Below are positions 31,931 to 49,572 of a stretch of DNA of 64,000 nt, piece by piece (within the stretch, counting starts at the first letter, position 1; every line of letters starts with the position of its first letter). This DNA comes from Vicinamibacterales bacterium (GTDB lineage Bacteria > Acidobacteriota > Vicinamibacteria > Vicinamibacterales > JAMQPK01): assembly GCA_035281225.1 (NCBI GenBank), contig DATEEI010000106.1, positions 29,122 to 93,121 on the forward strand, in the 5' to 3' direction. The position numbers and the translations under genes are program-made. The notes beneath the pieces were generated by a model. The model was not told the origin of the DNA and made no database searches. It worked only from the letters and a program-made list of their open reading frames with translations.

Positions 31931-32518
31931 ATGGCCCGAATCACAGCATGGATTGAGACCTTCGCGATCAGCGTCGGTGCCCCTGGACTCTTCATCATCG
32001 CGTTCCTCGACTCGTCGTTTCTCTCGTTCCCCGAAGTCAACGACATCCTCATCGTCCTCGCCGTCGTGAATCACCCGGAGCGGATGGTGCTCTACGCGAC
32101 GATGGCGACGCTCGGGTCGGTCGCCGGTTGCCTGGCCCTGTACTTCGTCGGCCGCAAGGGTGGCGAACGTCTGATGCGCAAACGATTCAGCGGAGGCAAC
32201 GTCGAGCGGGCATCCAATCTGATGCGGAAATACGGCGCCATGGCGTTGATCGTGCCGGCGCTGTTGCCTCCCCCTGCACCCTTCAAGATTTTCGTGCTCA
32301 TGGGTGGTGTGGCGAATATTCCACTGCCGACCTTTATCTGGGCCATCGCGGTAGGCCGTGGTGTCCGGTATTTCGGTGAAGGCATTCTGGCCGTGATGTA
32401 CGGCAAGCAGGCGCTCACCTACATTCACGAAAACGGAAAGATGGTTGGGCTCGCGCTTGCACTGCTGGTACTGGCTGGCGGTGTCGGCTACTACCTCTGG
32501 GCGCGGCGGCGCGTATAA
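31931..32518 (+). CDS. DedA/YqaA-family membrane protein
   Basis: LDSSFLSFPEVNDILIV..., LGSVAGCLALYFVGRKGGE and KYGAMALIVPALLPPPAPFKIFVLMGG, typical of the YqaA/DedA (SNARE-associated) family. Confidence 0.7.
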   Translation: MARITAWIETFAISVGAPGLFIIAFLDSSFLSFPEVNDILIVLAVVNHPERMVLYATMATLGSVAGCLALYFVGRKGGERLMRKRFSGGNVERASNLMRKYGAMALIVPALLPPPAPFKIFVLMGGVANIPLPTFIWAIAVGRGVRYFGEGILAVMYGKQALTYIHENGKMVGLALALLVLAGGVGYYLWARRRV

Positions 32519-32534
32519 TAGCGACTTCGATTGA

Positions 32535-33518
32535 ATGAACCCTGAGCTCTCGCTCGTCATTCCCATCCGCAACGAATCGCCGAATATCGGGGCCCTCTAC
32601 ACCGAACTCACGGAGGCGCTCGAACGGTGGGGGCGGAGCTACGAAGTCATTGCTGTTGATGACGGCAGCACCGACGACAGCTTCGAGTGCCTCGCACGAT
32701 GCCAGCAGCGAGATCCCCGCTGGCGCATCATCCGGTTCCGCCGAAACTTCGGGCAGACCGCTGCCTTTGCCGCTGGTTTCAGGCACGCACGCGGTCGTCT
32801 GATCGCAACCTCGGACGGCGATCTTCAGAACGATCCGCGCGATCTGCCCGACATGATTTGCCGCATCGAGGAGGGCAACGACATCGTCTGCGGCTGGCGG
32901 AAAGCGCGCAAGGACGCATGGCTGACGCGCCGCGTCCCCTCGGCTATGGCCAACATCCTCATCTCATGGTCGACCGGCGTGAAGCTGCACGACTATGGAT
33001 GTTCGCTGAAGGTCTTTCGATCGGAGGTGGTGAAGCCGATCAAGCTCTACGGAGAGATGCATCGATTCCTTCCCGCGATCGCGAGCGAAATGGGCGTGAA
33101 GATCGCCGAGGTCGTCGTCAACCATCGCGCGCGAAAGCACGGCACGTCGAACTACGGCCTCTCGAGGACGTTTCGCGTCGTGCTCGATCTCCTGACGGTG
33201 AAATTTCTCTTGAGTTACTCGACGCGCCCCCTGCAGATGTTCGGATTGATTGGCGTGCCGATGGGCCTGATCGGGTTTCTTATTGCGGTATTTCTTTCCT
33301 ACGAACGGTTGTTTGGATATGAGTCGATCGCCAACCGCCCGCTGCTGTTGCTCGCCGTACTGCTGATTTTCTCGGGTATTCAACTCCTTACGATGGGACT
33401 GCTGGCCGAAATCATGTCGCGGACCTATCACGAATCGCAAGACAAGCCCACCTACGTGATCAGGGAAGTGCGCGAGACCTCGCAGGGAGAAGCGCGCCCG
33501 CATTCGCTGAGCGTCTAG
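32535..33518 (+). CDS. GT2 polyprenol-phosphate glycosyltransferase (ArnC/GtrB/Ppm-like) with two C-terminal TM segments
   Basis: LSLVIPIRNE, VIAVDDGSTDDS, SDGDLQNDP (DxD) and YGEMHRFLP, plus C-terminal TM helices. Confidence 0.85.
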   Translation: MNPELSLVIPIRNESPNIGALYTELTEALERWGRSYEVIAVDDGSTDDSFECLARCQQRDPRWRIIRFRRNFGQTAAFAAGFRHARGRLIATSDGDLQNDPRDLPDMICRIEEGNDIVCGWRKARKDAWLTRRVPSAMANILISWSTGVKLHDYGCSLKVFRSEVVKPIKLYGEMHRFLPAIASEMGVKIAEVVVNHRARKHGTSNYGLSRTFRVVLDLLTVKFLLSYSTRPLQMFGLIGVPMGLIGFLIAVFLSYERLFGYESIANRPLLLLAVLLIFSGIQLLTMGLLAEIMSRTYHESQDKPTYVIREVRETSQGEARPHSLSV

Positions 33519-35626
33519 TCGTCCGAGACAAACGCGACCCAGGCGCCGAGCAGCCTGCGGTCACGGCTCTGTTCGATCTCCGCAGGCACGAAGCCTTCGC
33601 TCGTTCCGATTGTCAACGAAATGAACCGGTCCCCCTCCTTCGAGGGCACCACCACGCGTTCGGTTACGCCAGGCGTGAGCGCGAGTGTGTGCGACCATCC
33701 GCCCGTCGAGAGGGCGACGGCATTGGGCCGCGCGCCACTGTGAACGTCTATCGTCATGGCTGCACGGCTCGCATCTGGTTTCATCACTGTCATTCGTGCA
33801 CTGGCGCGTCCACTCACCCAGAATCCGCTCGGTTCCGGATATGCGTGCCCGTCGTGAAAGAAGACGGTCGCCGGCTCGAATGCGGCGGCCGACAGCACTG
33901 TTGCGGTCGGAAATCGCTTGCGCATCTCTACAACGCGCACCGGCGAGACGCGCAGTTCGGCAATCGCCGCCTCCACGTGGCGCGCGGCGCGAAACCCGAC
34001 GAATTCGGCGTCGAGCGGCACCTCGAATGTCTGCCGGATGCGCTCACCGGGAGCGAGCGCCAACCGCCATGTCTCAATCGGGCGACCTTCCCGGCCGATC
34101 TGCAATCCGATAGCGGCAGGGGGCACCAGCACACCTTGAGACGGTGCTCCTTTCAGTTCGAGCGTGTACGAGCCCGCAGGAAGGCGGAAGCGTGTGTTCA
34201 AGACCACGCGGACGGGCTGGCGGCCCGTGCGCTGCCCAGGAACGGCAGACAACACGAACACCGGAGGCAGCTCGTCTGGTCGAGCGACTGAAAATGGGTT
34301 ATAGCGAAGTGCAATGGGACGCGCGAGGGGATCGAAGGTTTCGAGAAGAGGGAACAGCCCGCGACCCTCGACATCGAACCGCTCGGTCTGGTTGGACGCG
34401 AAGGCAGCGGTTGCAGAAACGACGGCAACGGACAAGACCGCGACGGTGGCGGTGACCCATAGGGCGGCATGGCCAGCTGACGGAGCTTCGCGCCTGGAGA
34501 ATATCCACGCGGCAAATCCAAGCGCGCCCAGCCATACGACAACGCGAATTGAGGCGGCACGTTCGGCGCCTGCGACATAGCTCGGCGCCTCGTGCCATAG
34601 CTGCCACGTCGGCGACATCCCACGCAGGAACGACGACACACCGTCACCTTGCTGGGCGAGCGCTGCGCCCTGACCTTGAAGTGCGAGGCTCAGCGTAATG
34701 GCAATGCTGACAAGCAGCAGACATTGCATGCCGGCGCGTGACAGAGATGCAGGCGACGTGCGCGCATACAGCCACGCAATCGGCGGTACGAGGAACGGCA
34801 GCAGCAAGAGCACCGGACGACCGGGCATCATCGATCGGTGCCACCATGGGTCTACCGCCCCCGGAAGGGCCAAGAGAGCGACAGACGCAAGAACAAGCAG
34901 GGCTCCGAGTGGCCGGCGCCATCGTTCGCGCACCATGCCGGCAAGTCCGACAAACGCCAACAACAGCACGGGTGCGTAGAGCGTGATTCCGAACTCCTGA
35001 TCGAACACGACTCCTAGCGTGCCCGCCCGCCATGTCGACAGTCTCGCAGATGGCAATTCTCGAACGCGGCCGACGAGCTCGGCGAACGCATGCGGAAAGA
35101 CACGCGCGTTCAGAACGAACGGCGCGCTCAGAAAGACGGCGGCGCATGCGAAGATCCAGCCTGCGTGCGCAGGGTTGACTCCCAGCGGAGAAAACCCGAA
35201 ACGCTTGGCCAGGTCGGGAAGAATGAGCCACAAGACCTGCCCAATCACGACAAGCCACATCAGCCATCGGCCCGGTCCTGCGAACAGCCGTAGGGCGGGT
35301 AACCAGTCGGCAAGCCAGGGTAGATAGGGAAGCAGGAGGAACGACAGCCCAAACAAGGGCAGCAGCGCTGGTCGAACCGGACCCCAGAACGATCGCCGAT
35401 CGTCGCGATGCCGAAGCAGGGCCGCTATCCCGGCGGCGAATAGGAGCGTGAGAACGACGAGTCCCGCAAGCTCGGCGAGCGACGGCAGCATCGCCACACG
35501 CTCTGGCACCGCGGTTGTGCCCGCAACATCAAGTGATCCGCGGCTGATCCAGAGTGCCATCCCGGCGACGATGGCGGCTCCGACCGGGACGATGACATCT
35601 TGCCGAGTCTTGTTCTCGGAGGTCAC
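33515..35626 (-). CDS. Large polytopic membrane protein with a C-terminal ~330-aa extracytoplasmic domain (unknown function; last gene of the VTC/CotH operon)
   Basis: More than 10 predicted TM helices, then a soluble beta-rich domain. Start set at GTG 35626, which forms a GTGA overlap with the upstream stop and follows GGGAGA. ATG 35662 is the alternative. The ORF-track N-terminal extension was rejected. Confidence 0.5.
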   Translation of the reverse strand: MTSENKTRQDVIVPVGAAIVAGMALWISRGSLDVAGTTAVPERVAMLPSLAELAGLVVLTLLFAAGIAALLRHRDDRRSFWGPVRPALLPLFGLSFLLLPYLPWLADWLPALRLFAGPGRWLMWLVVIGQVLWLILPDLAKRFGFSPLGVNPAHAGWIFACAAVFLSAPFVLNARVFPHAFAELVGRVRELPSARLSTWRAGTLGVVFDQEFGITLYAPVLLLAFVGLAGMVRERWRRPLGALLVLASVALLALPGAVDPWWHRSMMPGRPVLLLLPFLVPPIAWLYARTSPASLSRAGMQCLLLVSIAITLSLALQGQGAALAQQGDGVSSFLRGMSPTWQLWHEAPSYVAGAERAASIRVVVWLGALGFAAWIFSRREAPSAGHAALWVTATVAVLSVAVVSATAAFASNQTERFDVEGRGLFPLLETFDPLARPIALRYNPFSVARPDELPPVFVLSAVPGQRTGRQPVRVVLNTRFRLPAGSYTLELKGAPSQGVLVPPAAIGLQIGREGRPIETWRLALAPGERIRQTFEVPLDAEFVGFRAARHVEAAIAELRVSPVRVVEMRKRFPTATVLSAAAFEPATVFFHDGHAYPEPSGFWVSGRASARMTVMKPDASRAAMTIDVHSGARPNAVALSTGGWSHTLALTPGVTERVVVPSKEGDRFISLTIGTSEGFVPAEIEQSRDRRLLGAWVAFVSDD

Positions 35627-37860
35627 CGAGAGGATCTCCCGTCTTGGTTGGCCCGAACGCATCTGAAGCCGACGTAGAGATTGTGTCGTCCTCTGCGTGA
35701 AAGAGCCGCCCGTTCCGATACGCGGAGCCGTGGAATGAGGTTGTCCCAGCCGCCTCCTTTGATCGTCCGCAGGTCGTATCCGGTACGCCCTGGCTCTGAC
35801 GCATGGGTCGGTCGAAATTCGCTGGCGGTCCATTCCCACACGTTGCCCGCCATGTCGTGCAATCCAAAGCTGTTCGCCGGAAACGATGCCACAGGCGCAG
35901 TGACGTCGAACCGCTCCGTTCGCAGAGTGTGGCGGCCGTTCGCCTGCCCCGTAAACTCGTCGCCCCACGGAAACAGTTTTCCGTCGAGCCCGCCTCGCGC
36001 GGCGTATTCCCATTCCTGTTCTGTCGGCAGGCGGCCGCCGACCCACCCGCAATAGGCGGATGCCTCATCCCATGTGACGTTGACGACAGGGTGCGTACCA
36101 TCGGCATACGACTCGGGCTGGCGTGGCATCTGTCGTGAGGTAGTGGAGGCGAACGCGCGAAAGTCGTCAGCCGAAACCTCCCGATCGAGCATGTCGAACG
36201 GATGGGCGAACGTGATGCGCACCCGCGGGAGCTCTGCCTCGCTGCAACGGTCATCACCCGGGACGCAGCCCATCCAGGAGTCGCCGGGCGGAATCGTTCG
36301 CCATGCCACGCGCGCAGGCGGAACCGGCCCACGTGGAAGAGGCATAAGTGGGGAAACGGTGCTCCGAGCCGGAGTGCTCTCAAAGAGCGCTTCGATTTGC
36401 GTGGCCTGCTCTGCTTTGAATTTCAAGGGTCCCGCGCCCCGAATCAGGCGGCCGTTGAGTGTCCATCCCGAAAACCCCGAGCGGTGTTCGTCGGCGATCT
36501 CCGCTGTCAATTCGAGGTCGGGAAAATAGAGCCCTTCATATCCGTCATTGACCGCCACACCCTCGATCAGCACTCGAACTCCTCGTGGTGCTGCGATGCT
36601 GACGCGCTGGCTCGGCGGTGTGTTCAGCCACTGTTCCGTTATGTGTCTGAAGTAGGTACGGCGCCGCTCCAGAAATCTCCGCAGCCGCGGAAGGTAATCG
36701 AGACGCCGCACTTCCATGTGGGTCGCTATTGTCAGGTAGTGCTCGTACCGCTCCATCAGGAACGCATCGGTGAGCTGATGGTTGAGCGCGCCCTGGACGA
36801 CGCGCTTGAGGTACTCGCGATACTGCGCGTCTTCTGCAATGAGCTGCGACAGGATAACCGCGCGCGGCTCGGCGCGATTTCGTCCCCGCCGACCCTCGGC
36901 CACGCGCTCGAGCAAATATTGGTAGCTGTCGTGATTCCAGTCGCGAAAGCTCTGGTCCATGTCCCAGTTGACCCAGAACCAGCCGGCGGTCTTCTTGGTC
37001 TGATCTAGGAACTGCCCCGGTCCTTGATACGCGTCCCGCGTGGCCGAAAATGCCACGGCGACAAACCATCGCGTGAGATTGTCGATGTTGACGCGCTCCG
37101 ACACATTCGCCATCGTCAGCGGACGAGTGTTACGCACCCACGCGAACAGCTTGTCCATCTCATCCTGGCTCAGCAGGATGTCGTCGTAACCCCAGTGCGC
37201 GGCAAAGAAGCGCTGGTCGAACCGCTCCGTCAGCACAAACGGGCCGTAGTACTCGCCGTTCAGATAGAAGCGCACCGGCTGCGTTTCGGGAGCAATCGCG
37301 CCAATGGCTCGGGCGATGTCGTACGCGAGCGGGTTGACGAAGTACCAGTTCACTTTGCCGTCACGCCGCACATCGTCGTGCACGACGATGCGACGAACGG
37401 GCTGTGCGGCCGGACTGAAGAACACGCCGGGCGACGCCGCTCGAGGACCATACTGCCTCCGGAAGTACAACCGGAATCCAGGCCGTGGGGACGTAATACG
37501 GCTTCCTCCTCCATGGATGCGCACGCCGACCCCCGAGGCAAAGACGAGCTTGCTGTTCTCGAAGTACGACATGCTGCCTTCGCGTTCCCACTGTCGGCCA
37601 TGCTCCGCCTTGTTGGGCAGAATGCCTCTGACGGGATCGTTCAGATCGGCGTCGTCGAGGGTGAGCGACAGCACAGGCCGGCCGCTGGCGATTTCCCTCA
37701 TGGGGACCGCGCTCGAGCTCGGCAGGGCCTCGGGGCTCCACTGCACCGCGAATCGCCACAACGGGAAGAGGTTGGCTGATTCGAGCTTCACCATGGCAAC
37801 GCACGTCGCCACGGTCGCGACGATGAGCAGCCACGAGGGGATCCGCCGCCGCGAAGGCAT
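35623..37860 (-). CDS. Signal-anchored CotH-family atypical kinase fused to a C-terminal FGE-sulfatase (SUMF1-like) domain
   Basis: N-terminal anchor MPSRRRIPSWLLIVATVATCVAMV. CotH-like VGVRIHGGGSRITSPRPGFRLYFRRQYG...YDIARAIG...VRFYLNGEYYGPFVLTERFD. FGE-like HPVVNVTWDEASAYCGWVGGRLPTEQEWEYAARGG...GLHDMAGNVWEWT...IKGGGWD...VGFRCVR. Confidence 0.7.
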   Translation of the reverse strand: MPSRRRIPSWLLIVATVATCVAMVKLESANLFPLWRFAVQWSPEALPSSSAVPMREIASGRPVLSLTLDDADLNDPVRGILPNKAEHGRQWEREGSMSYFENSKLVFASGVGVRIHGGGSRITSPRPGFRLYFRRQYGPRAASPGVFFSPAAQPVRRIVVHDDVRRDGKVNWYFVNPLAYDIARAIGAIAPETQPVRFYLNGEYYGPFVLTERFDQRFFAAHWGYDDILLSQDEMDKLFAWVRNTRPLTMANVSERVNIDNLTRWFVAVAFSATRDAYQGPGQFLDQTKKTAGWFWVNWDMDQSFRDWNHDSYQYLLERVAEGRRGRNRAEPRAVILSQLIAEDAQYREYLKRVVQGALNHQLTDAFLMERYEHYLTIATHMEVRRLDYLPRLRRFLERRRTYFRHITEQWLNTPPSQRVSIAAPRGVRVLIEGVAVNDGYEGLYFPDLELTAEIADEHRSGFSGWTLNGRLIRGAGPLKFKAEQATQIEALFESTPARSTVSPLMPLPRGPVPPARVAWRTIPPGDSWMGCVPGDDRCSEAELPRVRITFAHPFDMLDREVSADDFRAFASTTSRQMPRQPESYADGTHPVVNVTWDEASAYCGWVGGRLPTEQEWEYAARGGLDGKLFPWGDEFTGQANGRHTLRTERFDVTAPVASFPANSFGLHDMAGNVWEWTASEFRPTHASEPGRTGYDLRTIKGGGWDNLIPRLRVSERAALSRRGRHNLYVGFRCVRANQDGRSSR

Positions 37861-38556
37861 TTACAGCGCGCCTGGTCTGTTGAAGAAGACGTTATACGAC
37901 GAAGGGCCTGTCGCGGCGTCGAGATCGGCTTGCAGCCCGGTGAGCGCGTCGGTCGCGATGTCCTGGAAGTTGTAGGACACCACCGTTTCGCCGTTGGACT
38001 GCGACACGCTTTCGAGCCTGGCTTTCGGGAGTCGCCTGCGTAGTACCGCTGTCACAGCTGCCGGATCGGCCGGCCGTCCATTCGCGGGGAAGGAGATGAC
38101 GATGATGCCATCCGAATCGGCGCCCATGAAACGCCGTGTCAGCACCTGGCCGAACAGGGCGGCGAGCCCGACGACCAGGATGATGCCGACGAACGCCAGC
38201 TTGAACGTGGCGACAGCGATCGACGAGGCGATGACCAGCATGATGAAGCCGATCTCCTCGGGTTCTTTGATCGGCGTGCGGAAGCGGACGATTGACAGGG
38301 CTCCGAGCAGGCCGAGCGAAAGGGGGAGCGAGAATTGAATCGCAATGAAGATCGCAGTGATCGAGATGCTCAGCAACGGAAAGGCTCGATGCACCTGACT
38401 GCCGGTGGCCCGGTTCGAATAGAAGTGCACGTAGAGGTACGCGATGAACAGCGATGAGAGCAGCGAGACACCCATCAGCATGAGGAACGCCAGCGGCGTC
38501 ACTTGCGGGCCGGTGCCCTGTGCGAACGTGCCAAATAAGTTGTTCAGCCGCTCCAT
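37861..38556 (-). CDS. DUF4956-family membrane protein
   Basis: Four TM segments with the family-typical GLLGALSIVRFRTPIKEPEEIGF core and a C-terminal soluble domain. Abuts the CotH gene. Confidence 0.6.
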   Translation of the reverse strand: MERLNNLFGTFAQGTGPQVTPLAFLMLMGVSLLSSLFIAYLYVHFYSNRATGSQVHRAFPLLSISITAIFIAIQFSLPLSLGLLGALSIVRFRTPIKEPEEIGFIMLVIASSIAVATFKLAFVGIILVVGLAALFGQVLTRRFMGADSDGIIVISFPANGRPADPAAVTAVLRRRLPKARLESVSQSNGETVVSYNFQDIATDALTGLQADLDAATGPSSYNVFFNRPGAL

Positions 38557-38560
38557 GACG

Positions 38561-39286
38561 TTAGAGAACCTCGCGCATCATATGTGCGTACACAGTCAGA
38601 AACTTCGAGAACGAGCGCTTGTGGATTCCGAGGTGCAGCAACGGTTTCAACGTGCGCGGAAGGCGATCGCCCGAACCTTTCACTTCGAGCACCGCCGACG
38701 CCAGCGGCGATCGATCCCCCGGCACGAGCCGCGGATGCACGGCGACGCCCGCGATGTCCGCGTCGAGACTGACCCGCGAGCGGGTCGGTAGATCGAGGAA
38801 CCGGTCGCGGCGGTAGCGGAGGAGCATCAGCGGTTGCCACGATTCGTGGCCGAGAATGCCGTGCTGACGTAACAGAGACGGGATAGTCAACAGGCGCGAG
38901 TCCTGAAGGCTCCACTGTGCGATCTCGCCGGCCGCCCACGACAGCCGTTCGCGCACTTTCGAACGGCGCGTCCCCACGCGAAGTTTGGCTTCGACGAATG
39001 CCGGTCCTGATACGCGGCCGTGCAAATCGGAATACCACCGAATCCTGATCTTCCGCTTCAGGTAGTCGCTGTTGATCTTTCCCGCCAGCGAAACGAGAGC
39101 GGGCGTGTCGTAATAAATCGTCCAGACGATGGCCGCCGGAAACTCGGGATCGCGCCGGCAAACGCGTTCGAGCCAGCGGCGTGCGAGGTGCACTCGTCCG
39201 ATTGGCAACGCGAACTTGAGCTCGCGCTCATCTTCGCCGGAGACGTGCGGGGCGGGAGCATTCTGCGTCGCCTCGGGACTAAGCAT
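38561..39286 (-). CDS. VTC-domain (CYTH-like polyphosphate polymerase tunnel domain) protein
   Basis: ERELKFALP..., WTIYYDTPAL...YLKRKIRIRWY...FVEAKLRVGTRRSKVR and VLEVKG follow the pattern of the VTC/CYTH fold. Start set at Met69 (ATG 39286), avoiding overlap with the upstream gene. Confidence 0.6.
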   Translation of the reverse strand: MLSPEATQNAPAPHVSGEDERELKFALPIGRVHLARRWLERVCRRDPEFPAAIVWTIYYDTPALVSLAGKINSDYLKRKIRIRWYSDLHGRVSGPAFVEAKLRVGTRRSKVRERLSWAAGEIAQWSLQDSRLLTIPSLLRQHGILGHESWQPLMLLRYRRDRFLDLPTRSRVSLDADIAGVAVHPRLVPGDRSPLASAVLEVKGSGDRLPRTLKPLLHLGIHKRSFSKFLTVYAHMMREVL

Positions 39287-39317
39287 CGACAACTTGAAGG
39301 CTGCAGTATAGCAAGGT

Positions 39318-41387
39318 TCAGGGCGCGAAAATGATGTCGCGCGTCTGTACGCCGAGTAGCCGTCCCGTTCCGCGAGGCCGCCATGGTGGCTCGATCTTGA
39401 CGTGCACCCAGTTGACATCGGGATTCTTCGGCGGGGGCAGCGCATGCTTGAGGGTGACCCATGACTGGTCCTTGAGAGCGAAGACGCCAAGGACCCGATC
39501 GCCGGCCGACACGGTGACGGTCTGAGGAATGGCGGCGATCGATCGGACCTTCATCTCGAACACACGCGTGCCGGGACGCACGTGAAAGAAGACATTCGGC
39601 ATGCTCCACCGATATTCGACACCCGATCGGCTTCGATGCGTTTCATAGAGGCCGCGTGCGCGTGCAGCCTCGGTCGCGGCCCCGGCGTAGATGGTCTCAA
39701 TAAGCTTCCAGTTCGCGCCGTCGAGCACGCGGCCGTCAATCTGGAGAATATCCAGCGTGTCGAAGTACTGCTGGCTCCAGTCCTCGTGCTCCCAGTCATA
39801 CATGGCCCATGCACGAGAACGTGGCGCATGGTCGGCGAGTGTCAACGCAGGTACACCGGGCAGTGCGTGTGCGACGCCAATGCCCTCGAGCACGGTGCCG
39901 GGGATGTCGGTAATCGACGTGGGCGCTTCAGACACTCGCACCGGGCCTTGACTGTCGAGCGGTTTCACGACCAGAAGCGCCATTGCCTTGCCTGCGAGGG
40001 TCGACAACTGACCCGCAGGCGTCGGCCTGTCGTTCTCGAAACTCGGAGGGGCGAACCCGATGCCATGGTCCGACGAGATGACGACGAACGTCTTGTCGTA
40101 GACGCCCATCTCCTTCAGGCGATCCAGAATCGCCGCCGTTCTCCTCACCGCGCATCGTGCCTGCTCTTTGTACGAATCGCGCGTGGCCCGGACGACGCCG
40201 ATGAACTGACAGTCGGCGTTTACGGCGACTGGCTGGTGGGGGATGCCGACATGAATGAACTTATAGAGCGGTTCGTCCGTGCCGAGCGTCAACCGGCGCG
40301 CGAAATCGCGGAGGACCACCGCTCCGTTGACAGGATGATGTCGGCGCGTGCGGGTGTCCCCGGGGCCGAACCGCGTCTGCAGCCGCCATGACTGTTCGTT
40401 GTAAATCGACGGTCGCAGGATGTGAGGTGCATGCCTGAAGAGTGACAGGTCGGCCAGTTGCCACGCGGTGAACTGTGTGTAGTCCTCGTAGCTCACGTAC
40501 GGGCGCGGCATTCGATAGTAGTTCGTGGCCGATTCCTTATCGTGGTGCATGCCGGTCACGCTGTCGACACGATACGCACCGGCGCGGAGCGACTTGAAGA
40601 GCGATCCCTGTTGGAAGACGTTGCGGACGTAGGTCTGCAACCCTCGCTCGTTGCGATACACCCGCCCCGTGAGCATCGCCGGAATGCTGGCGATCGTGGT
40701 GGGAAACGCGCCTGTGTGATTGGCGAAGAACACGGCACCCGACAGGCTGCGGTCGAGCGCGCGGCGCTCCTCAGCGAGAATCTCGCCGAATACATCGGAC
40801 TGAAATCCGTCGAGGACGATATGAAGGACGTTCTGCTTTCTGGAAAGCTCGAACATGGAGTCGGACAGACCGTCCCATTTCGCCGGAGTTGCCCGATCGG
40901 CGCGTACCGCAGATGCGACGAGGACTGCCAGCTGCAGCGCCACGAGAGCGCCGCTGGCGAACGGTGCGATCGGGAACGTGTGCCGCGCCGCGACAACCGA
41001 CAGCGCTGGGACGGCAATCCAGAGCGCCATCTCGTACGGATTGCGCCACGATTCGATCGTCCAGTCGATGACGGCGCCCGTAAATGGGCCGTAGTCGGCC
41101 ACGAGAAAATTGCCCTGTATCCACAGCACGAGGCCGAGACCGAACAGCAGCGACACGTACGGGCGAAATAGCATGTTCGGGAGCACGACCGCCAGCGCGA
41201 CAAGGACGAGCACAAGACCGGCGCCCGTGAACAGTAGCGGACGAACGAGCACCCAGAACGGCGCGTTGAACTCTGCTTCGTTGCCAGAGAAAATCGTGAA
41301 GGGACCGAACAGGCAGAGCGGCAGCACGACGAGCAGGGCGGGGACGAGCGAGCTCGTCAGCCGTTTCTTCCAATTGTGCTCCGTCAT
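39318..41387 (-). CDS. Membrane-anchored alkaline-phosphatase-superfamily transferase (LtaS/EptA/MdoB-like 'sulfatase' fold)
   Basis: Five to six N-terminal TM segments. VLHIVLDGFQSDVF metal site, HTGAFPTTIASIPAMLTG (Thr where true sulfatases have C/S-x-P-x-R) and VVISSDHG. Confidence 0.7.
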   Translation of the reverse strand: MTEHNWKKRLTSSLVPALLVVLPLCLFGPFTIFSGNEAEFNAPFWVLVRPLLFTGAGLVLVLVALAVVLPNMLFRPYVSLLFGLGLVLWIQGNFLVADYGPFTGAVIDWTIESWRNPYEMALWIAVPALSVVAARHTFPIAPFASGALVALQLAVLVASAVRADRATPAKWDGLSDSMFELSRKQNVLHIVLDGFQSDVFGEILAEERRALDRSLSGAVFFANHTGAFPTTIASIPAMLTGRVYRNERGLQTYVRNVFQQGSLFKSLRAGAYRVDSVTGMHHDKESATNYYRMPRPYVSYEDYTQFTAWQLADLSLFRHAPHILRPSIYNEQSWRLQTRFGPGDTRTRRHHPVNGAVVLRDFARRLTLGTDEPLYKFIHVGIPHQPVAVNADCQFIGVVRATRDSYKEQARCAVRRTAAILDRLKEMGVYDKTFVVISSDHGIGFAPPSFENDRPTPAGQLSTLAGKAMALLVVKPLDSQGPVRVSEAPTSITDIPGTVLEGIGVAHALPGVPALTLADHAPRSRAWAMYDWEHEDWSQQYFDTLDILQIDGRVLDGANWKLIETIYAGAATEAARARGLYETHRSRSGVEYRWSMPNVFFHVRPGTRVFEMKVRSIAAIPQTVTVSAGDRVLGVFALKDQSWVTLKHALPPPKNPDVNWVHVKIEPPWRPRGTGRLLGVQTRDIIFAP

Positions 41388-42373
41388 CGCGCGGATTCCA
41401 GGGCCGTAAAACGACGAAGGCTTGTTGTTCGCATATCGTAGCGGCGCACGATCTCCTCTCTGAACGCCTCTGCGATCCTGGTCTGGCCTTCAGCGGTCGG
41501 ATGGAGTCCATCCTGGCCGATCAGCGTCATGTTTGCCTCGAAGATCGAGAACAGATCGACAACCGGTCCGGTATTCAGCTCGGCCGCAATCTGGAAGATG
41601 CGGTCGTTGAGAGCGCGAATCCGTGACATGGAGCCCACATGTCCGTCAGCCTCCCACTGCGGCGTGACCGGCATCACCGTGGCGAGGATCACCTCCACCT
41701 GTCGCAGTTGTGCGGTCTGAACCATGCTCCGGATCGCGTCAGCCTGTCGCGATGTCGACAGCAACCAGACGGCGTTGACCCCCTCGAGTATCAGGACCAC
41801 GTCCGGTTTGTCGGTGTCCAGCACCCCTGGAAGGCGTAGCGCGCCGCGATCCGTTCGCTCTGCGGCGGCGCCGCTGTTTAGCACTACGACCGGCTGTGCG
41901 GGATATCGCTGCTGAAGCATCTGTTCCAGCTTGTAGGGGTAGGTTTCGGGTTCGGCCAAGCTCCTCAGCGGGGCCAGCGAAATTGTGCCCTGCGTGATGC
42001 TGTCGCCGAAGGCTGTGAACTTGGTCTTCGCAAGGGTTTGGGAAACGCGCACGGTCACCCCGAATCCGCACGAGACCTGTATCGATTTCTCGTCCGTTGC
42101 CGTGCAGCGAACCGTGTTGTCGCCGATGGGGAAGACGCTGCCCGAACCCGGGTCGCACTGAACGTGGTAGGGAGGTCGCCCCCCCGTTGGCGTCAGCGGG
42201 TCGAAGTGGACGTCGGTCCCCTGTGGGCTCGTCGCCTCACGAATCACGTTGTCCGGGCACAAAAGCTGCAAGATAGGATCGGGAGGCGGCGGCTGGATGG
42301 GCGTTTTTCCACCGCACCCTGTGACGGTCATCAACGCCGCAACGAGAAATGCGAGACTTGGAAGAATGCGCAT
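41384..42373 (-). CDS. Lipoprotein with an HYR-like Ig domain and an SGNH/GDSL hydrolase domain
   Basis: Lipobox MTVTGC. HYR-like ATSPQGTDVHFDPLTPTGG...VQCDPGSGSVFPIGDNTVRCTATD. SGNH block I FGDSITQG and C-terminal DGLHPT. Confidence 0.7.
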   Translation of the reverse strand: MRILPSLAFLVAALMTVTGCGGKTPIQPPPPDPILQLLCPDNVIREATSPQGTDVHFDPLTPTGGRPPYHVQCDPGSGSVFPIGDNTVRCTATDEKSIQVSCGFGVTVRVSQTLAKTKFTAFGDSITQGTISLAPLRSLAEPETYPYKLEQMLQQRYPAQPVVVLNSGAAAERTDRGALRLPGVLDTDKPDVVLILEGVNAVWLLSTSRQADAIRSMVQTAQLRQVEVILATVMPVTPQWEADGHVGSMSRIRALNDRIFQIAAELNTGPVVDLFSIFEANMTLIGQDGLHPTAEGQTRIAEAFREEIVRRYDMRTTSLRRFTALESAR

Positions 42374-43652
42374 GAATTACGCCGCTGTCCTACTCATCGG
42401 CCTGATGACCCTTCAACAGGGCGCCGCAGCGGCGCGGACGGGCCAGGTACGCGCTGAGGGCCGGGCCGTCGCCGACGCAGCGGGACCCTTCAACGCGCTC
42501 GGAGCCACGTTGTTCTGGGGCGCATGGGGTTACAAGTTCGACCGAGCCAGGCTCGAACGTAATCTCGCGGTCCTCAGCGCCGCCGGTATCGACTATGTGC
42601 GTGTCCTCGGATCAGTCGGTGGCGACTCGTGGGAAGACAGACAGACCGATCCGAGGTGGCCAGATTATGACGCGAATATCGCCGGGATGACAGATCTGGC
42701 CTACGACCGCTACGGAATGCGCGTGCAGTGGACGATCTTCGGCGGTTCGCCGTTTACCCCGAGCAGGGCCTCGCGCGCGGCCCTAGTCGACCGTTTTGCC
42801 GCGATGGCGAAGGGGCGCGAGCACAAGATCTTCGCCTTCGAGATTGCCAACGAGGCGTGGCAGAACGGCTTTAGCGGTCCCGAAGGGATGACGGAGCTGC
42901 GGCGACTCGGCAAGCGGCTCAACAACCAGACCACGGTCCTGGTCGCGCTGAGCGCGCCAGCGCAGGGCGCTGCCTGCGAGACATACGCGGGGTCGGGCGC
43001 CAACGCGATGACCGTGCACTACGAGCGGGGATTCGAGGGCGAAGGACCGTCGCTGCCACTACGGCAGCCATGGGGTTTCCCCGCCGCGCACGACCGCGCA
43101 TGCCGCGGCCAGCTTCCGGCGATCGTGTTCAACAACGAGCCGATCGGCCCCGAGAGCTCGGTGCAGCAGGACGACTCGGCGTCGCGAATCGCCGCCGGTT
43201 ACGTTTTGACGTTTCTCGCGGGCAACGCGAGCTACGTGCTTCACGCCGGTCCCGGCATTCGCGGTGGTGGTGCCGCCGACAGGTCGGCAAAGCTTCTGCG
43301 CCACGCACATTTCGACGAGTTGCCGTCCTTCGCGCCCATCACGGCGGCGCTCGGAGCAGCAAAGCGGTACTTGCCGCCTGGGGTTGCGAACTGGACGCGT
43401 CACGCACCGAATACGGCAACCGCGCCGATTCGCGGATTCGATTACGTGTATACGGTGGCGTCGAAAGGACGGTTTATCGCACTAGCCGTCGGGATCGAGC
43501 AGCCCGTGACCGTCCGTGCGCAGGTGAATGCCACCATCGACATCAGGGAGTTGGAGACCGGGAAGGTTGTCAGGCGCCTGAAAGTCTCTTCGGGCGACAG
43601 CATCGACCTGAGTGGCTACGAAGAGCTCGTCATCATTGGGCGTGGTACATGA
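42366..43652 (+). CDS. Secreted TIM-barrel glycoside hydrolase-like protein (clan GH-A / GH5-like)
   Basis: Signal peptide MRMNYAAVLLIGLMTLQQGAAAA. FEIANEAWQNG (NE acid/base-like) and VFNNEPIG. The family assignment is tentative. Confidence 0.4.
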   Translation: MRMNYAAVLLIGLMTLQQGAAAARTGQVRAEGRAVADAAGPFNALGATLFWGAWGYKFDRARLERNLAVLSAAGIDYVRVLGSVGGDSWEDRQTDPRWPDYDANIAGMTDLAYDRYGMRVQWTIFGGSPFTPSRASRAALVDRFAAMAKGREHKIFAFEIANEAWQNGFSGPEGMTELRRLGKRLNNQTTVLVALSAPAQGAACETYAGSGANAMTVHYERGFEGEGPSLPLRQPWGFPAAHDRACRGQLPAIVFNNEPIGPESSVQQDDSASRIAAGYVLTFLAGNASYVLHAGPGIRGGGAADRSAKLLRHAHFDELPSFAPITAALGAAKRYLPPGVANWTRHAPNTATAPIRGFDYVYTVASKGRFIALAVGIEQPVTVRAQVNATIDIRELETGKVVRRLKVSSGDSIDLSGYEELVIIGRGT

Positions 43653-45027
43653 TGCGCGTCCCCGATCCGAGCGGCTGCCGCTTCGCAATCCGGAACCTCG
43701 CCGCAAGCTCGCGCTCGAACACGTCTTCATCGTAATCGGTGTAGTGATCTTCTTTGTTGCGCAGCAGCGTGACGACCATCGGATCCTTGCGCGTCACGAA
43801 CTCGATCACCAACTCCCCGCCAAGGTCGCGCAGCCATTGAACGAACTCCGCCATCGGAATGTTGCCGCCGATGACGACATGATGGATCAGCGCCAGCGCG
43901 AGGATGAGCTCGGGCCGCCCACGCTCGTCGATGCGCTTGCGCTCCATGTTCCGCCAACCGAGATTCGGCGACGGATCGGTCACATTGACGACGAGCGGGA
44001 GAATATTCGTCACCTTCTCAGCCTTGAGCGCCAGATACAGCTTGTCGATCGCGAGATGGTCTAAATCCATGGCGACGACGTGCGTCGTCCGCTCCGCGAG
44101 AATGCGGGAAAAGACGCCGACGTTGCAGCCGATGTCCCACGCCAGGCTCCGGTCGCGAGTGCCGGCGACACCGCGAACGAACTCGCGCTTCTGCTCGGCA
44201 TCCGACGCCTCGTAGTGGCCGCATTTCAGGTAGTCGGACCATGTGGACTGTTTCGGCTTCCACTGGAGGCCCGCCACGAGCGCGCGAAGGCCCTCGGCGT
44301 TGGTCTTGATGATCCGTTTGTCGAATCCCGCCTTGGTCAGATCCTTCCGCACGTCACGCGTCGTGGCGTTGTACGCCTTCTGTGCTTTCGCCTGCAGGTA
44401 CACGTGCGCGAGCACGCCGGCGCGCACGTAATCGCGCGCGCTCAGCAGGTTCAAGCAGACCTCGGCGTCCATGCCGTCGATGTTGCCCCGCATCCAAGGC
44501 TGGAAGGGCACATCGCGATATGCCTGCAGGAGGAGCGGGTAGAGGAACATCTGGCAGAACTGCCGGTAGCCCACCCAGGGCTCGCCTTCGGCGCGCGTGT
44601 AGAAGGACGCCACATCGACGAAGACCGGTGACGCGCCTTTCCACTGGAGGTTGTAGGCCGATGCGTCCTTCAGGCCGATGCCTTCTTCCAGCCCGGCCAG
44701 CACGAGGTCGAGTTGAAGCAGCGCGGCGTCTCTGAGCATCTCGAACGACCATTCGTACGGGTAGGAGACGAACGGCAACTTCTCGTGCTCGAGCACCCCG
44801 GCCCATTGCTGACCGGTTGACGAGAGAGGGAGGGACGCGAGATCGCGCTGCTGTGTCGGCACGATCGCGCCGCTGCCCGAGAAGCGCCGAAAGAAGCTAG
44901 TGGCCGAGAGCGCCTGCCATTCCTTGAGCGCCGTTTCGTTGAGACCGCGGAAGATTTTTCCGTCGTGATAGAAAACCCTGGCCGTCCGATCCCGGAACGA
45001 ACCGGGCTCGAGCGCAATGTCACTCAT
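43633..45027 (-). CDS. Two-domain protein: C-terminal class I SAM-dependent methyltransferase with an N-terminal domain of unknown (possibly kinase-like) fold
   Basis: Motif I LAWDIGCNVGVFS and post-I VVAMDLD. The N-terminal domain contains LKDASAYNLQW...VFVDVASF. Confidence 0.65.
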   Translation of the reverse strand: MSDIALEPGSFRDRTARVFYHDGKIFRGLNETALKEWQALSATSFFRRFSGSGAIVPTQQRDLASLPLSSTGQQWAGVLEHEKLPFVSYPYEWSFEMLRDAALLQLDLVLAGLEEGIGLKDASAYNLQWKGASPVFVDVASFYTRAEGEPWVGYRQFCQMFLYPLLLQAYRDVPFQPWMRGNIDGMDAEVCLNLLSARDYVRAGVLAHVYLQAKAQKAYNATTRDVRKDLTKAGFDKRIIKTNAEGLRALVAGLQWKPKQSTWSDYLKCGHYEASDAEQKREFVRGVAGTRDRSLAWDIGCNVGVFSRILAERTTHVVAMDLDHLAIDKLYLALKAEKVTNILPLVVNVTDPSPNLGWRNMERKRIDERGRPELILALALIHHVVIGGNIPMAEFVQWLRDLGGELVIEFVTRKDPMVVTLLRNKEDHYTDYDEDVFERELAARFRIAKRQPLGSGTRIMYHAQ

Positions 45028-48024: not shown

Positions 48025-49572
48025 TCAGGCGGTCGCGCCGGCGTTCTTCGCGGTCGGACCCGCACGCTTGTTGCGGATGCGGTGCGCGAGATCCTGCAGC
48101 GACTTATCGAGGCGAGACTCCTGACGGTGCTGCAGGAGGTTCTGCAGAATTCGAAACAGACGCCACGGCCGAATCGCGTACTGCGTGCCGTAGAACACGA
48201 GAAATCCGATGATGCGGTAGGTGTTGAGCCGTTGCGGGCTCAGCCCGTCGGTGAACGACACCGGATGGGAGAAATCCTTGTACGCGCCGAGGCCGAGAAA
48301 GTACTCGTCCGAGAGATCGGGAATGCGCCCGGACTTGACCAGGTCGTGATAGAGCTCCGATCCCGGATATGGCGAAAAGATCGAGATGCTCATATCGTGC
48401 ACACCGGCGCGCCCCATCCTGAACAGGAACTTGATGGTCTGTCGGAGCTCTTCGCGCGACTCACCGGGAAAGCCCATGATGATGTTGAGCTTGACGTTCA
48501 GCTTGCTCACCACGGCGCCACGAACCGAGGCTTCCAGCCGGTCGAGCTTGACGACCTTCTTGATGCGCTTGAGCACGGCAGGGGAGCCGCTCTCCGGCGC
48601 GTAGCTCATGTTCCGGCACCCTGACTCGTACAGCAGACGGCTGACTTCGGTATCGATGGCTTCGGATCGCGTGCCGCTCGGAAGCTGCCAGGTGAACTGC
48701 ATCTTCCTGTCGAGAATCATCTGCGTGAACTCGATGATCCAGCTGCGCTTCACAATCGCGGTGAGATCGTAAAAGTCGAAATTGGTCGCGCGATAGCGCT
48801 CCTGATACAACTGGATCTCATCCAGCACCTGGGCCGGCGCTCGCGCGATCCACCGGGTCGTCCACATCTCTGGGTTCGAGCAGAAGGTGCACTCGTACGG
48901 ACACCCGCGCGTGGCCAGCATCGGCATGCTGCGGCCCCGGTCGACTCCATACCCGAGCCCGTGGTCGAGATAGTGGTCGAGGGGTACAAGATCCCACGCG
49001 GGAAGGGGAATGTCGTCGATGGACCGGATGCGCGCCCGCGGCGCCGTGGCGCGTGTGCCCACCCCGTCTCGGACGACCAGCCCGGGAACGTTGTCGAACC
49101 CGGCGCGGGCATCAATCGCGTTCGCCAAATCCACGATGGTCTCTTCACCCTCGCCAATCGCACAGGCGTCGACTTCGGGCGTCGACCTGAGGGTGAAATC
49201 GGCAACGGCAGTGATGTGCTCGCCGCCCGCGACGATCGGAATGCCGGGGAATCGCTGGCGCGCGAGCCCGATCATGCGCCGTACTTCCGGCCAGTCCTGC
49301 GAGAACATGCAGCTGACCCCGATGAGATCGGTGTCGGGCTCGATGCGTTCGACGATTTCCTCGCTGCGCAGCCCGATGGCGGTCACCTTGTTGTTGTAGA
49401 GCGATGTGACCTCGAAGGGGTTTTCCCCAAGGCCGTCGATGATGCGCGGTGTATGCCCAGCCTGCCTCAGGCTGGCCGCGAGATACGCCGGCCCGATCGG
49501 AGGCGTCATCGGCCCGGAGTCCGACCAGGTCGGCACGAGGAGCGGTGGCCTGAGAATCGTGACGGTTGCCAT
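48025..49572 (-). CDS. B12-binding-domain radical SAM enzyme
   Basis: N-terminal cobalamin-binding-type domain (PPIGPAYLAASLRQAGH...IGVSC), radical SAM cluster motif CPYECTFC. Confidence 0.8.
   Translation of the reverse strand: MATVTILRPPLLVPTWSDSGPMTPPIGPAYLAASLRQAGHTPRIIDGLGENPFEVTSLYNNKVTAIGLRSEEIVERIEPDTDLIGVSCMFSQDWPEVRRMIGLARQRFPGIPIVAGGEHITAVADFTLRSTPEVDACAIGEGEETIVDLANAIDARAGFDNVPGLVVRDGVGTRATAPRARIRSIDDIPLPAWDLVPLDHYLDHGLGYGVDRGRSMPMLATRGCPYECTFCSNPEMWTTRWIARAPAQVLDEIQLYQERYRATNFDFYDLTAIVKRSWIIEFTQMILDRKMQFTWQLPSGTRSEAIDTEVSRLLYESGCRNMSYAPESGSPAVLKRIKKVVKLDRLEASVRGAVVSKLNVKLNIIMGFPGESREELRQTIKFLFRMGRAGVHDMSISIFSPYPGSELYHDLVKSGRIPDLSDEYFLGLGAYKDFSHPVSFTDGLSPQRLNTYRIIGFLVFYGTQYAIRPWRLFRILQNLLQHRQESRLDKSLQDLAHRIRNKRAGPTAKNAGATA

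Follow-up and report, generated by a model that had tools for sequence, protein, structure and literature searches.

Six-gene locus

A stretch of 64,000 nucleotides from the metagenome-assembled genome of a soil acidobacterium of the order Vicinamibacterales (Acidobacteriota; GCA_035281225.1, contig DATEEI010000106.1), referred to here as the window, carries six closely packed genes on its minus strand, three of which encode a VTC-domain protein, a DUF4956 membrane protein and a CotH-type kinase. This triad, and the putative operon built around it, are the subject of the present analysis. Domains were called with Pfam profiles at their curated cut-offs, and transmembrane segments and anchors were taken from hydropathy. 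The genes, in their 5' to 3' order, are as follows.

G1, 41384..42373, minus strand: HYR and SGNH lipoprotein, 329 residues
G2, 39318..41387, minus strand: membrane-anchored Sulfatase-family enzyme, 689 residues
G3, 38561..39286, minus strand: VTC-domain protein, 241 residues as counted from the ATG chosen in the first-pass annotation
G4, 37861..38556, minus strand: DUF4956 membrane protein, 231 residues
G5, 35623..37860, minus strand: CotH and FGE protein, 745 residues
G6, 33515..35626, minus strand: polytopic membrane protein, 703 residues, with a GTG start and a GGGAG motif 5' of the GTG

The first-pass annotation had described six minus-strand genes with five tight junctions, and re-reading of the coordinates and spacing from the sequence gave the same arrangement: an ATGA overlap between G1 and G2, a 31-nucleotide gap between G2 and G3, a 4-nucleotide gap between G3 and G4 (TAA-cgtc-ATG), direct abutment of G4 and G5 (TAAATG) and a GTGA overlap between G5 and G6. 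The domains named in it (HYR, SGNH, Sulfatase, VTC, DUF4956, CotH and FGE) each scored above the Pfam curated cut-off in a hidden Markov model (HMM) search, and the topology assigned to all six products is borne out by hydropathy and Pfam together. The spacing of the genes, along with the synteny described below, suggests that the six are co-transcribed. Promoter and terminator scans across the operon remained at chance level, and an Rfam search upstream of it returned no regulatory RNA or riboswitch. The GC content and skew of the operon are those of its flanks, and there is thus no sign of recent horizontal transfer.

Triad proteins, their partners and their synteny

G3 consists of a VTC domain only (PF09359, 2.7e-18, 66.8 bits against a cut-off of 23; model positions 4-234 of 235) and contains no hydrophobic or transmembrane segment, being soluble and cytoplasmic. 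The VTC family profile matches the catalytic domain of Vtc4 (3g3q) at 9e-10, as compared to 0.26 for the inorganic triphosphatase 5a60, and the RLRWY (with R264/R266), ExK, YxR, SLDT, AVLEVK and FSK motifs are aligned between the profile and 3g3q; the strand-1 ExK of G3 would correspond to K200 of Vtc4. Residues E22, K24, R81, R83, E99, K101, R160, E201, K203, S227 and K228 of G3 are invariant across 56 diverse homologues, and a full-library search placed its relatives in 860 clusters at 50% identity. G3 is accordingly predicted from its sequence to adopt a triphosphate-tunnel fold resembling that of polyphosphate (polyP) polymerases, and the balance leans slightly towards a protein that makes polyP.

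G4 matches DUF4956 (PF16316) at 5.6e-13 (49.4 bits against a cut-off of 30.6) and has about four transmembrane helices. Its core motif, QFSLPLSLGLLGALSIVRFRTPIKEPEE, spans 28 residues, 22 of which are invariant in 26 sequences from many phyla (G4 and 25 triad members), the whole-protein identity of these sequences to G4 being 41-60%. Outside QFSLPLSLGLLGALSIVRFRTPIKEPEE, DUF4956 and its partner proteins diverge to 35-60% identity, a constraint on the motif that is unusually strong for a small membrane protein. Identity between orthologues is ∼80% for DUF4956, as compared to ∼67% for VTC and ∼58% for G6, and DUF4956 is the most constrained member of the triad. In the AlphaFold2 model, the beta-alpha-beta-beta-alpha-beta unit of residues 148-226 has matches among ACT-like folds, one of them being the C-terminal domain of MgtC (7qa5); the C-terminus of G4 is therefore modelled as a ferredoxin/ACT-like domain. 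Homology of DUF4956 to the Vtc1/Vtc4 membrane pore was considered and rejected, as a diverse profile found no Vtc1/3/4 chain in the PDB at E values up to 10.

G5 has an N-terminal membrane anchor (residues 6-29), followed by a CotH domain (PF08757, 1.9e-26, 93.8 bits against a cut-off of 23.8), a beta-sandwich linker and a C-terminal FGE-like domain of the C-type-lectin fold. The profile of the triad-linked CotH domains matches Bacillus cereus CotH (5jd9) at 1.5e-13. Residues D276 and D300 of G5 are invariant and align to the catalytic D228 of Bacillus subtilis CotH and to its D251, reported as the metal-binding Asp (Nguyen 2016). The D228Q substitution leaves B. subtilis CotH inactive (PMC7821199). 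Retention of both residues makes the triad CotH look catalytically competent. A basic-then-hydrophobic N-terminal anchor is present in 53 of 56 triad CotH proteins as compared to 1 of 40 VTC proteins, so it is a general feature that the tunnel enzyme is cytoplasmic and the kinase exoplasmic, with a membrane protein as the third component. Among the CotH N-termini of L002-L061, an acidic residue, usually Glu, follows the anchor almost everywhere (...VERL, ...IESA, ...LEKA), and may mark an interaction or processing site at the outer face of the membrane.

The FGE-like domain of G5 scores 7.8e-51 (FGE-sulfatase, PF03781, 173.6 bits). At the position where FGE carries CxxxxC, presumably near the C-terminus as in human SUMF1, it reads GGGWDNLIPRLRVSERAAL, and the catalytic, copper-binding Cys pair is absent; its top PDB match is the non-catalytic paralogue SUMF2 (1y4j). 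The domain is thus predicted to be a binding or scaffold fold and not a formylglycine-generating enzyme. Activation of the neighbouring Sulfatase-family protein G2 by this domain was rejected, as G5 lacks the Cys pair and G2 has a Thr and no Cys/Ser-x-P-x-R. A PDB entry named 'Spore coat protein CotH' (5aoh, 273 residues) matches the FGE-like residues 608-681 of G5 (3e-8) and not its CotH domain, so a different CotH-FGE fusion may have had its lectin-fold domain solved under the CotH name.

The six-gene order is kept in five other contigs (L002, L003/L004, L063, L064, which is frameshifted, and L065), whose VTC proteins are 65-72% identical to G3. SGNH, Sulfatase, VTC, DUF4956, CotH/FGE and a family-less membrane protein of ∼700 residues follow each other in these relatives, with the Sulfatase gene duplicated in L003 and the G6 counterpart as the last operon gene in every case; the six genes thus form a unit conserved within the lineage. 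The wider distribution of the triad was surveyed in GTDB, at one genome per species, by a scan seeded only on the VTC peptide NSDYLKTK from a 13-sequence alignment. The sample comprises VTC proteins with the exact NSDYLKTK, the window orthologues (NSDYLKRK) being excluded, and the loci were mapped with HMMs built from those window proteins that Pfam had verified. The 58 loci obtained come mostly from Gram-negative phyla and are labelled as Acidobacteriota, Verrucomicrobiota, Desulfobacterales and other deltaproteobacteria, Spirochaetota, Planctomycetota, Calditrichota, Aminicenantes, Polyangiaceae and several candidate groups.

Sequence of at least 3.2 kb after VTC was available in 46 loci. 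DUF4956 lies directly downstream in 45 of these, and VTC, DUF4956 and CotH follow in that order on one strand, with short gaps, in 43; the three exceptions are rearranged or lack CotH alone. Since the loci were selected on VTC alone, the finding of the other two genes beside it independently supports a functional unit. The accessory genes of the window are sparser among the 58 loci (SGNH in 16, HYR in 13, FGE in 8, of the Acidobacteriota type only, Sulfatase in 6 and the membrane part of G6 in 1), i.e. the triad is constant while the accessory genes vary. The six-gene elaboration, including the CotH-FGE fusion and the orphan G6, is specific to one lineage. Synteny, the absence of which was named at first pass as a refutation, is thus seen at two levels, for the six genes in relatives and for the triad across phyla, and the first-pass remark that no function is established for the bacterial triad agrees with the literature searched, in which no paper joins 'DUF4956' with 'VTC' and none gives the triad a biochemical function.

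Several loci depart from the simple arrangement. A second, divergent DUF4956-like gene stands between DUF4956 and CotH in the Desulfobulbales-type L036, L040, L043 and L061, DUF4956-CotH is duplicated in tandem in L055, a VTC-DUF4956 pair occurs twice in L026, and CotH flanks VTC-DUF4956 on both sides in L007. The triad coordinates and layout of L008, labelled 'uncultured Bifidobacteriaceae', are nearly those of the Vicinamibacterales locus L016, and the contig is probably mis-binned.

The triad families have been reported earlier from Gram-positive bacteria. Genes for CotH, a 'poly-phosphate polymerase' and DUF4956, together with DUF4832, form a conserved accessory set of Gram-positive pelDEADAFG operons (Whitfield et al. 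2020, PMC7112168); the module of Streptococcus intermedius is SIR_1594-1591, and its DUF4832 protein is an active glycosidase (PMC12345266). As in the window, the three families of the Pel module are adjacent amid exopolysaccharide genes, a cytoplasmic VTC accompanies a secreted or anchored CotH, and DUF4956 combines four transmembrane helices with an ACT-like domain. The window differs in its host, a Gram-negative acidobacterium, in the order VTC-DUF4956-CotH, in a CotH with an FGE-like domain where that of the Pel module has FN3, and in its partners: the DUF4832 hydrolase is replaced by the lipoprotein with HYR and SGNH domains, the enzyme of LtaS/EptA type and the orphan G6. No Pel-specific Pfam family was detected in the larger open reading frames (ORFs) of the window, a few ORFs of ∼180-285 residues lying outside the scan, and no Pel family is among the 25 commonest families of the 132 nearest-neighbour ORFs of the GTDB loci.

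The triad families are also held by the NELoc-2 locus of Clostridium perfringens (Lepp et al. 2010, PMC2879425). Its VTC genes are each followed by a membrane protein of ∼225 residues (annotated as tubulin/FtsZ), beside CotH, a family 2 glycosyltransferase (GT2) synthase and a polysaccharide deacetylase; unlike the window, however, it is a Firmicute pathogenicity locus, in which the VTC/membrane pair is duplicated around a resolvase and no SGNH, LtaS-like or G6 partners occur. The authors of the S. intermedius study state that they saw no case of this three-gene synteny away from Pel loci (PMC12345266), a remark that the present loci contradict. The locus described here is a Gram-negative, Pel-independent form of an already reported, functionally unsolved cassette and not the first of its kind; what is new is the occurrence of the cassette beyond Pel loci and Gram-positive bacteria, its conserved topology and the glycan-directed character of its variable partners.

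Among the lineage-specific partners, G1 matches Lipase_GDSL_2 (PF13472) over its full length (5e-24, 86.2 bits) and HYR, an Ig-like domain, at 8.8e-5. Its lipobox is LMTVTGC, and the SGNH blocks are readable as FGDSIT (GDS), EGVNAV (GVN) and QDGLHPT (DGLH), with the SGNH catalytic residues kept.

G2 (Sulfatase, 1.9e-11) has about five N-terminal transmembrane helices within residues 9-163, then a catalytic domain in the periplasm and a C-terminal domain of ∼170 residues that is specific to the lineage. Its segment PTTIASIP aligns to NPCGPSRA of the phosphonate monoester hydrolase 4upk, with a Thr at the position of the nucleophilic Cys; the C/S-x-P-x-R motif of arylsulfatases is absent, and the DG...D and SSDHG metal motifs are kept. 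The Thr together with the metal motifs indicates a transferase of the LtaS/EptA/OpgB type and not a sulfatase, and the LtaS/EptA-like reading made at first pass holds up on this Thr and on the N-terminal membrane block. The sequence supports the assignment at the level of the family, with no equivalog match. G2 shares with LtaS, EptA, OpgB and BcsG the N-terminal multi-helix block, the periplasmic alkaline-phosphatase-superfamily domain, the Thr nucleophile and the Asp/His metal motifs; it differs in its weak similarity to the characterised members (the PDB matches, none better than 9e-5, are to sulfatases and a phosphonate monoester hydrolase) and in its extra C-terminal domain.

G6 comprises about 10-12 transmembrane helices and then ∼290 soluble residues. 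It matches no Pfam or NCBIfam family (Pfam E up to 5), and has 163 homologues, with 44-62% identity among the matches listed. Its AlphaFold2 model (pLDDT, the per-residue confidence score, of 77.8) shows a helical membrane domain and two C-terminal beta-sandwich domains resembling carbohydrate-binding modules (CBMs), and Foldseek retrieved structures for the beta-sandwich part only (Vip3 CBM-like, SGBP-B and BcsB), with low TM-scores. Identification of G6 as a GT-C glycosyltransferase (PMT/ArnT/STT3) is not supported, since there is no Pfam match at E up to 5 and hhalign gave a probability of at most 0.2% against the PMT_2 protein and a 530-residue polytopic protein of the window. No GT-C enzyme is among the top 50 Foldseek matches, a list dominated by the beta-sandwich part.

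Glycan genes recur around the triad. GT2 genes, found with our own HMMs, are present in 20 of the 58 GTDB loci, several being ArnC-like and directly 5' of VTC. ORF clusters, counted over the 58 loci and L002 and L003, include NAD-dependent epimerase/dehydratase (14 loci), family 4 glycosyltransferase (GT4, 11 loci), hexapeptide acyltransferase, LPG_synthase_TM and asparagine synthase (7 loci each) and PMT-type GT-C (4 loci). The same families recur in a separate Pfam scan of the 132 nearest-neighbour ORFs, drawn from 44 non-redundant GTDB loci, and the window itself has a PMT-type GT-C, an epimerase and an LPG_synthase_TM protein near the operon. The variable partners of the triad, namely SGNH, LtaS/EptA-like and ArnC-like GT2 proteins and lectin-fold domains, all point to a glycan substrate.

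Phosphate transfer across the membrane and its alternatives

The triad probably works as a single functional unit with the envelope or a glycan as its target. We assign a probability of about 0.38 to the more specific reading that the operon is a lineage-specific form of a widespread cassette which adds phosphate to an extracytoplasmic glycan or glycoconjugate across the cytoplasmic membrane. The conserved topology is consistent with transfer of polyP or phosphoryl groups across the membrane, as was proposed at first pass, a model that is itself speculation. The soluble VTC protein would build polyP from ATP in its basic tunnel at the cytoplasmic face, as Vtc4 does in yeast. DUF4956, probably as an oligomer, would take up the chain and conduct it over the inner membrane, the membrane potential (positive outside) favouring export like the vacuolar gradient in yeast; polyP export by DUF4956 is a tentative proposal. 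The anchored CotH would then phosphorylate a surface polymer or carrier in the ATP-free periplasm from polyP, directly or via the chain ends, and such use of polyP as a donor is doubtful.

The other products of the locus can be placed around the same polymer. The HYR-SGNH lipoprotein G1 may act on it as an O-acyl esterase or transferase, and the LtaS/EptA-like G2 may move a phospho-alcohol head group onto it from a lipid donor. G6, with its CBM-like domains, may also handle the polymer, the FGE-like lectin-fold domain of CotH may bind the substrate, and the sugar would probably be supplied by an adjacent unit of a DedA-family protein and an ArnC-like polyprenyl-phosphate-sugar enzyme. Export of polyP would explain the strict order and topology of the triad, the catalytic conservation of an exoplasmic kinase in the absence of ATP, the constraint on DUF4956 and the variable glycan-related partners.

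To our knowledge the bacterial periplasm has no ATP pool, and extracytoplasmic phosphorylation without ATP has been solved only for special cases with lipid-linked donors (such as undecaprenyl diphosphate and phospholipid head groups). The cassette is thus a testable candidate for a new route of energy or phosphoryl supply and for a so far unrecognised way of modifying surface glycans with phosphate. If export of polyP to an ATP-independent kinase outside the membrane is true, it would be the first system dedicated to providing the periplasm or cell surface with energy for phosphoryl transfer, and would give many phyla, pathogens included, a new chemical route of exopolysaccharide modification; the cassette also sits in virulence- or biofilm-associated loci of Streptococcus and C. 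perfringens.

The strongest form of the proposal, which likens the triad to the polymerase/translocase of eukaryotic VTC, assembled in bacteria around a membrane subunit of other descent and exporting polyP to fuel an ATP-independent kinase outside, is rather unlikely. The eukaryotic complex (Vtc4 with the Vtc1/2/3 pore; 3g3q, 7ytj, 8i6v) has a homologous tunnel domain, the basic and acidic tunnel residues of which are kept in G3, and a cytoplasmic polymerase-like domain is likewise placed beside a small multi-helix membrane protein, with a polarity from the cytosol to an acidic, positive compartment. Yeast VTC reportedly couples polyP synthesis to membrane translocation in dependence on the electrochemical gradient (Hothorn 2009; Gerasimaite 2014). 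G3, however, has neither an SPX nor a fused membrane domain, and its partner is DUF4956 and not a Vtc1-type domain of three transmembrane helices. Similarly, G5 shares the CotH fold and both conserved Asp residues with Bacillus CotH (5jd9) and the Fam20 kinases, the latter also working topologically outside the cytosol. Bacillus CotH in contrast acts with ATP in the mother-cell cytoplasm, on CotB and CotG, whereas G5 is membrane-anchored and periplasmic, has the extra beta-sandwich and FGE-like domains and belongs to a host not known to form spores.

Several points weigh against phosphate transfer to a glycan by way of exported polyP. Many enzymes of the triphosphate-tunnel fold are hydrolases rather than polymerases; the characterised CotH and related Fam20 kinases use ATP, and we know of no CotH that uses polyP. 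DUF4956 showed no sequence relationship in the PDB, whether to the membrane domain of eukaryotic VTC or to a solved channel, and the AlphaFold2 model of G4 is poor (pLDDT 60.7), its transmembrane part being unreliable because only homologues of 76-97% identity were used. The literature searched holds no biochemical data on any bacterial VTC, DUF4956 or secreted CotH protein, and only the neighbouring genes suggest a glycan as the target. In S. intermedius, deletion of DUF4956 leads to more Pel and deletion of cotH to less, each of the two cutting aggregation by more than 50% in sputum medium, and deletion of VTC has no aggregation phenotype (PMC12345266). The opposite Pel shifts and the silent VTC deletion look more regulatory than linear, and a regulatory role accounts for these phenotypes no less well than export. 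The authors of that study further suggest that polyP may remain cytoplasmic, and relate the DUF4956 protein to MgtC, which regulates the homeostasis of phosphate and ATP (PMC12345266).

These deletion phenotypes and the MgtC connection speak for an alternative in which the triad is a regulatory module. VTC would make or hydrolyse a cytoplasmic phosphate signal, either polyP or inorganic triphosphate (PPPi), DUF4956 would sense it via its ACT-like domain and signal across the membrane, and CotH would be an ordinary protein kinase or pseudo-receptor that tunes exopolysaccharide output, with no phosphate crossing. The predicted C-terminus of DUF4956, a ligand-binding ACT/ferredoxin-like fold matching that of MgtC, agrees with such a sensor. 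The near-invariant intramembrane and interfacial motif of DUF4956 is, however, of a kind more usual at transport or catalytic sites than in sensors, the tunnel residues of the polymerase type do not vary, and the phosphoryl donor of an exoplasmic kinase with intact Asp residues is left unexplained. On this evidence we consider a purely regulatory triad unlikely.

Alternatively, polyP may itself be the product, secreted by VTC and DUF4956 and anchored or coupled to a glycan or protein by a CotH with lectin-like or FN3 domains, to form a polyanionic coat for cation binding, desiccation or metal tolerance, or biofilm cohesion. Surface-associated polyP is present in some bacteria, such as Neisseria. 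The synteny and topology that speak for phosphate transfer to a glycan speak equally for such a coat, as do the association with exopolysaccharide and biofilm loci (PMC7112168) and the heavy phosphorylation of Ser-rich repeat proteins by B. subtilis CotH (PMC7821199). There is, however, no evidence for transfer of polyP chains by CotH, and no surface protein of the locus looks like a polyP binder; the coat differs from the preferred phosphate-transfer reading only in the fate of the exported polymer and carries all of its inferred steps. It is judged distinctly unlikely.

The triad proteins could also function independently, with VTC as a cytoplasmic storage polymerase or phosphatase, CotH as a secreted kinase using the extracellular ATP that is present in some biofilms, or as a non-enzymatic adhesin as in Mucorales, and adjacency reflecting co-regulation in envelope-stress or biofilm programmes. 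Cytoplasmic retention of polyP as suggested for S. intermedius (PMC12345266), and the reported action of fungal CotH proteins as invasins would agree with this, but it is improbable, as ordered adjacency in 43 of 46 loci with short gaps exceeds what simple co-regulation usually gives, the invariant catalytic residues of CotH argue against a purely adhesive role, and the triad stays fixed while accessory genes vary.

Operon boundaries and flanking genes

The genes that border the operon, and the further glycan-related genes of the window, are as follows.

42366..43652, plus strand: U1, a conserved secreted protein of ∼430 residues and no known family, with a signal-peptide-like N-terminus, divergent from G1
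43633..45027, minus strand: gene of 464 residues 5' of U1 with weak Methyltransf_23/12 matches, a candidate member of the same transcription unit as the operon
31931..32518, plus strand: VTT/DedA-family membrane protein (VTT_dom, 3.3e-13)
32535..33518, plus strand: ArnC/PgfS-like polyprenyl-phosphate glycosyltransferase (GT2, 5e-30) with two C-terminal transmembrane helices
46289-48016, upstream region: PMT_2-type GT-C
48025-49572, upstream region: B12-binding radical SAM enzyme
53396-54493, upstream region: radical SAM/SPASM protein
2424-10883, plus strand: ORF of 2819 residues with glucoamylase-like, GH94 supersandwich and GH94 catalytic domains

The start codons of G1 and U1 share the palindrome CATG at 42371-42374, so there is no intergenic promoter region between them, and at its other end U1 overlaps the 464-residue minus-strand gene tail-to-tail by 20 nucleotides (43633-43652). 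U1 is thus nested antisense between two co-directional genes. Its homologues occupy the same position in L002, L003, L063 and L064, and in L009 the homologue is co-directional and 5' of HYR-SGNH. A gene of 464-470 residues on the matching strand stands 5' of U1 in L002, L063 and L064 (matched by size and strand, not by sequence). In L065 U1 is absent, and a 468-residue homologue of the 43633-45027 gene overlaps the start of the SGNH gene by 4 nucleotides. This coupling, together with the shared CATG, indicates that the transcript may begin 5' of the six genes and run antisense through U1; the nesting of U1 and its loss in L065 suggest control by antisense RNA or transcriptional interference.

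No Pfam, NCBIfam or PDB match was obtained for U1. Its homologues keep two NE motifs (FEIANE and NNEPIGP) ∼95 residues apart, a pair that recalls the acid/base and nucleophile Glu residues of TIM-barrel glycosidases in clan GH-A, and U1 might be a counterpart of the glycosidase (DUF4832) that goes with the Gram-positive cassette. Assignment of U1 as a glycoside hydrolase was nevertheless not adopted, as the two motifs are suggestive but have no support from Pfam, NCBIfam or the PDB, and it is kept as a lead only.

At the 3' end, the plus-strand unit of the DedA and ArnC-like genes (31931..33518) converges on G6, with the stops overlapping by 4 nucleotides and no terminator between them. The GT2 at 32535..33518 matches the NCBIfam ArnC model at 3e-63 and PgfS at 2.5e-44, both under the equivalog cut-offs. 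A DedA/ArnC-like pair is also found downstream in L063, and ArnC-like GT2 genes lie directly 5' of VTC in L007, L009 and L010. In three relatives (L002 16433-19215, L003 16494-19264 and L065 16497-19221), a GT2, an NTP-transferase and a CofD-family protein (2-phospho-L-lactate-transferase-like, 655-665 residues) are inserted between G6 and the ArnC-like GT2, a block that has no counterpart in the window or in L063 and hints at a pathway for a phosphodiester-linked substituent tied to the operon. The pair of B12-binding radical SAM enzyme and PMT protein also recurs upstream in L063, and the giant 2819-residue ORF resembles the cyclic beta-1,2-glucan synthases (NdvB/Cgs).

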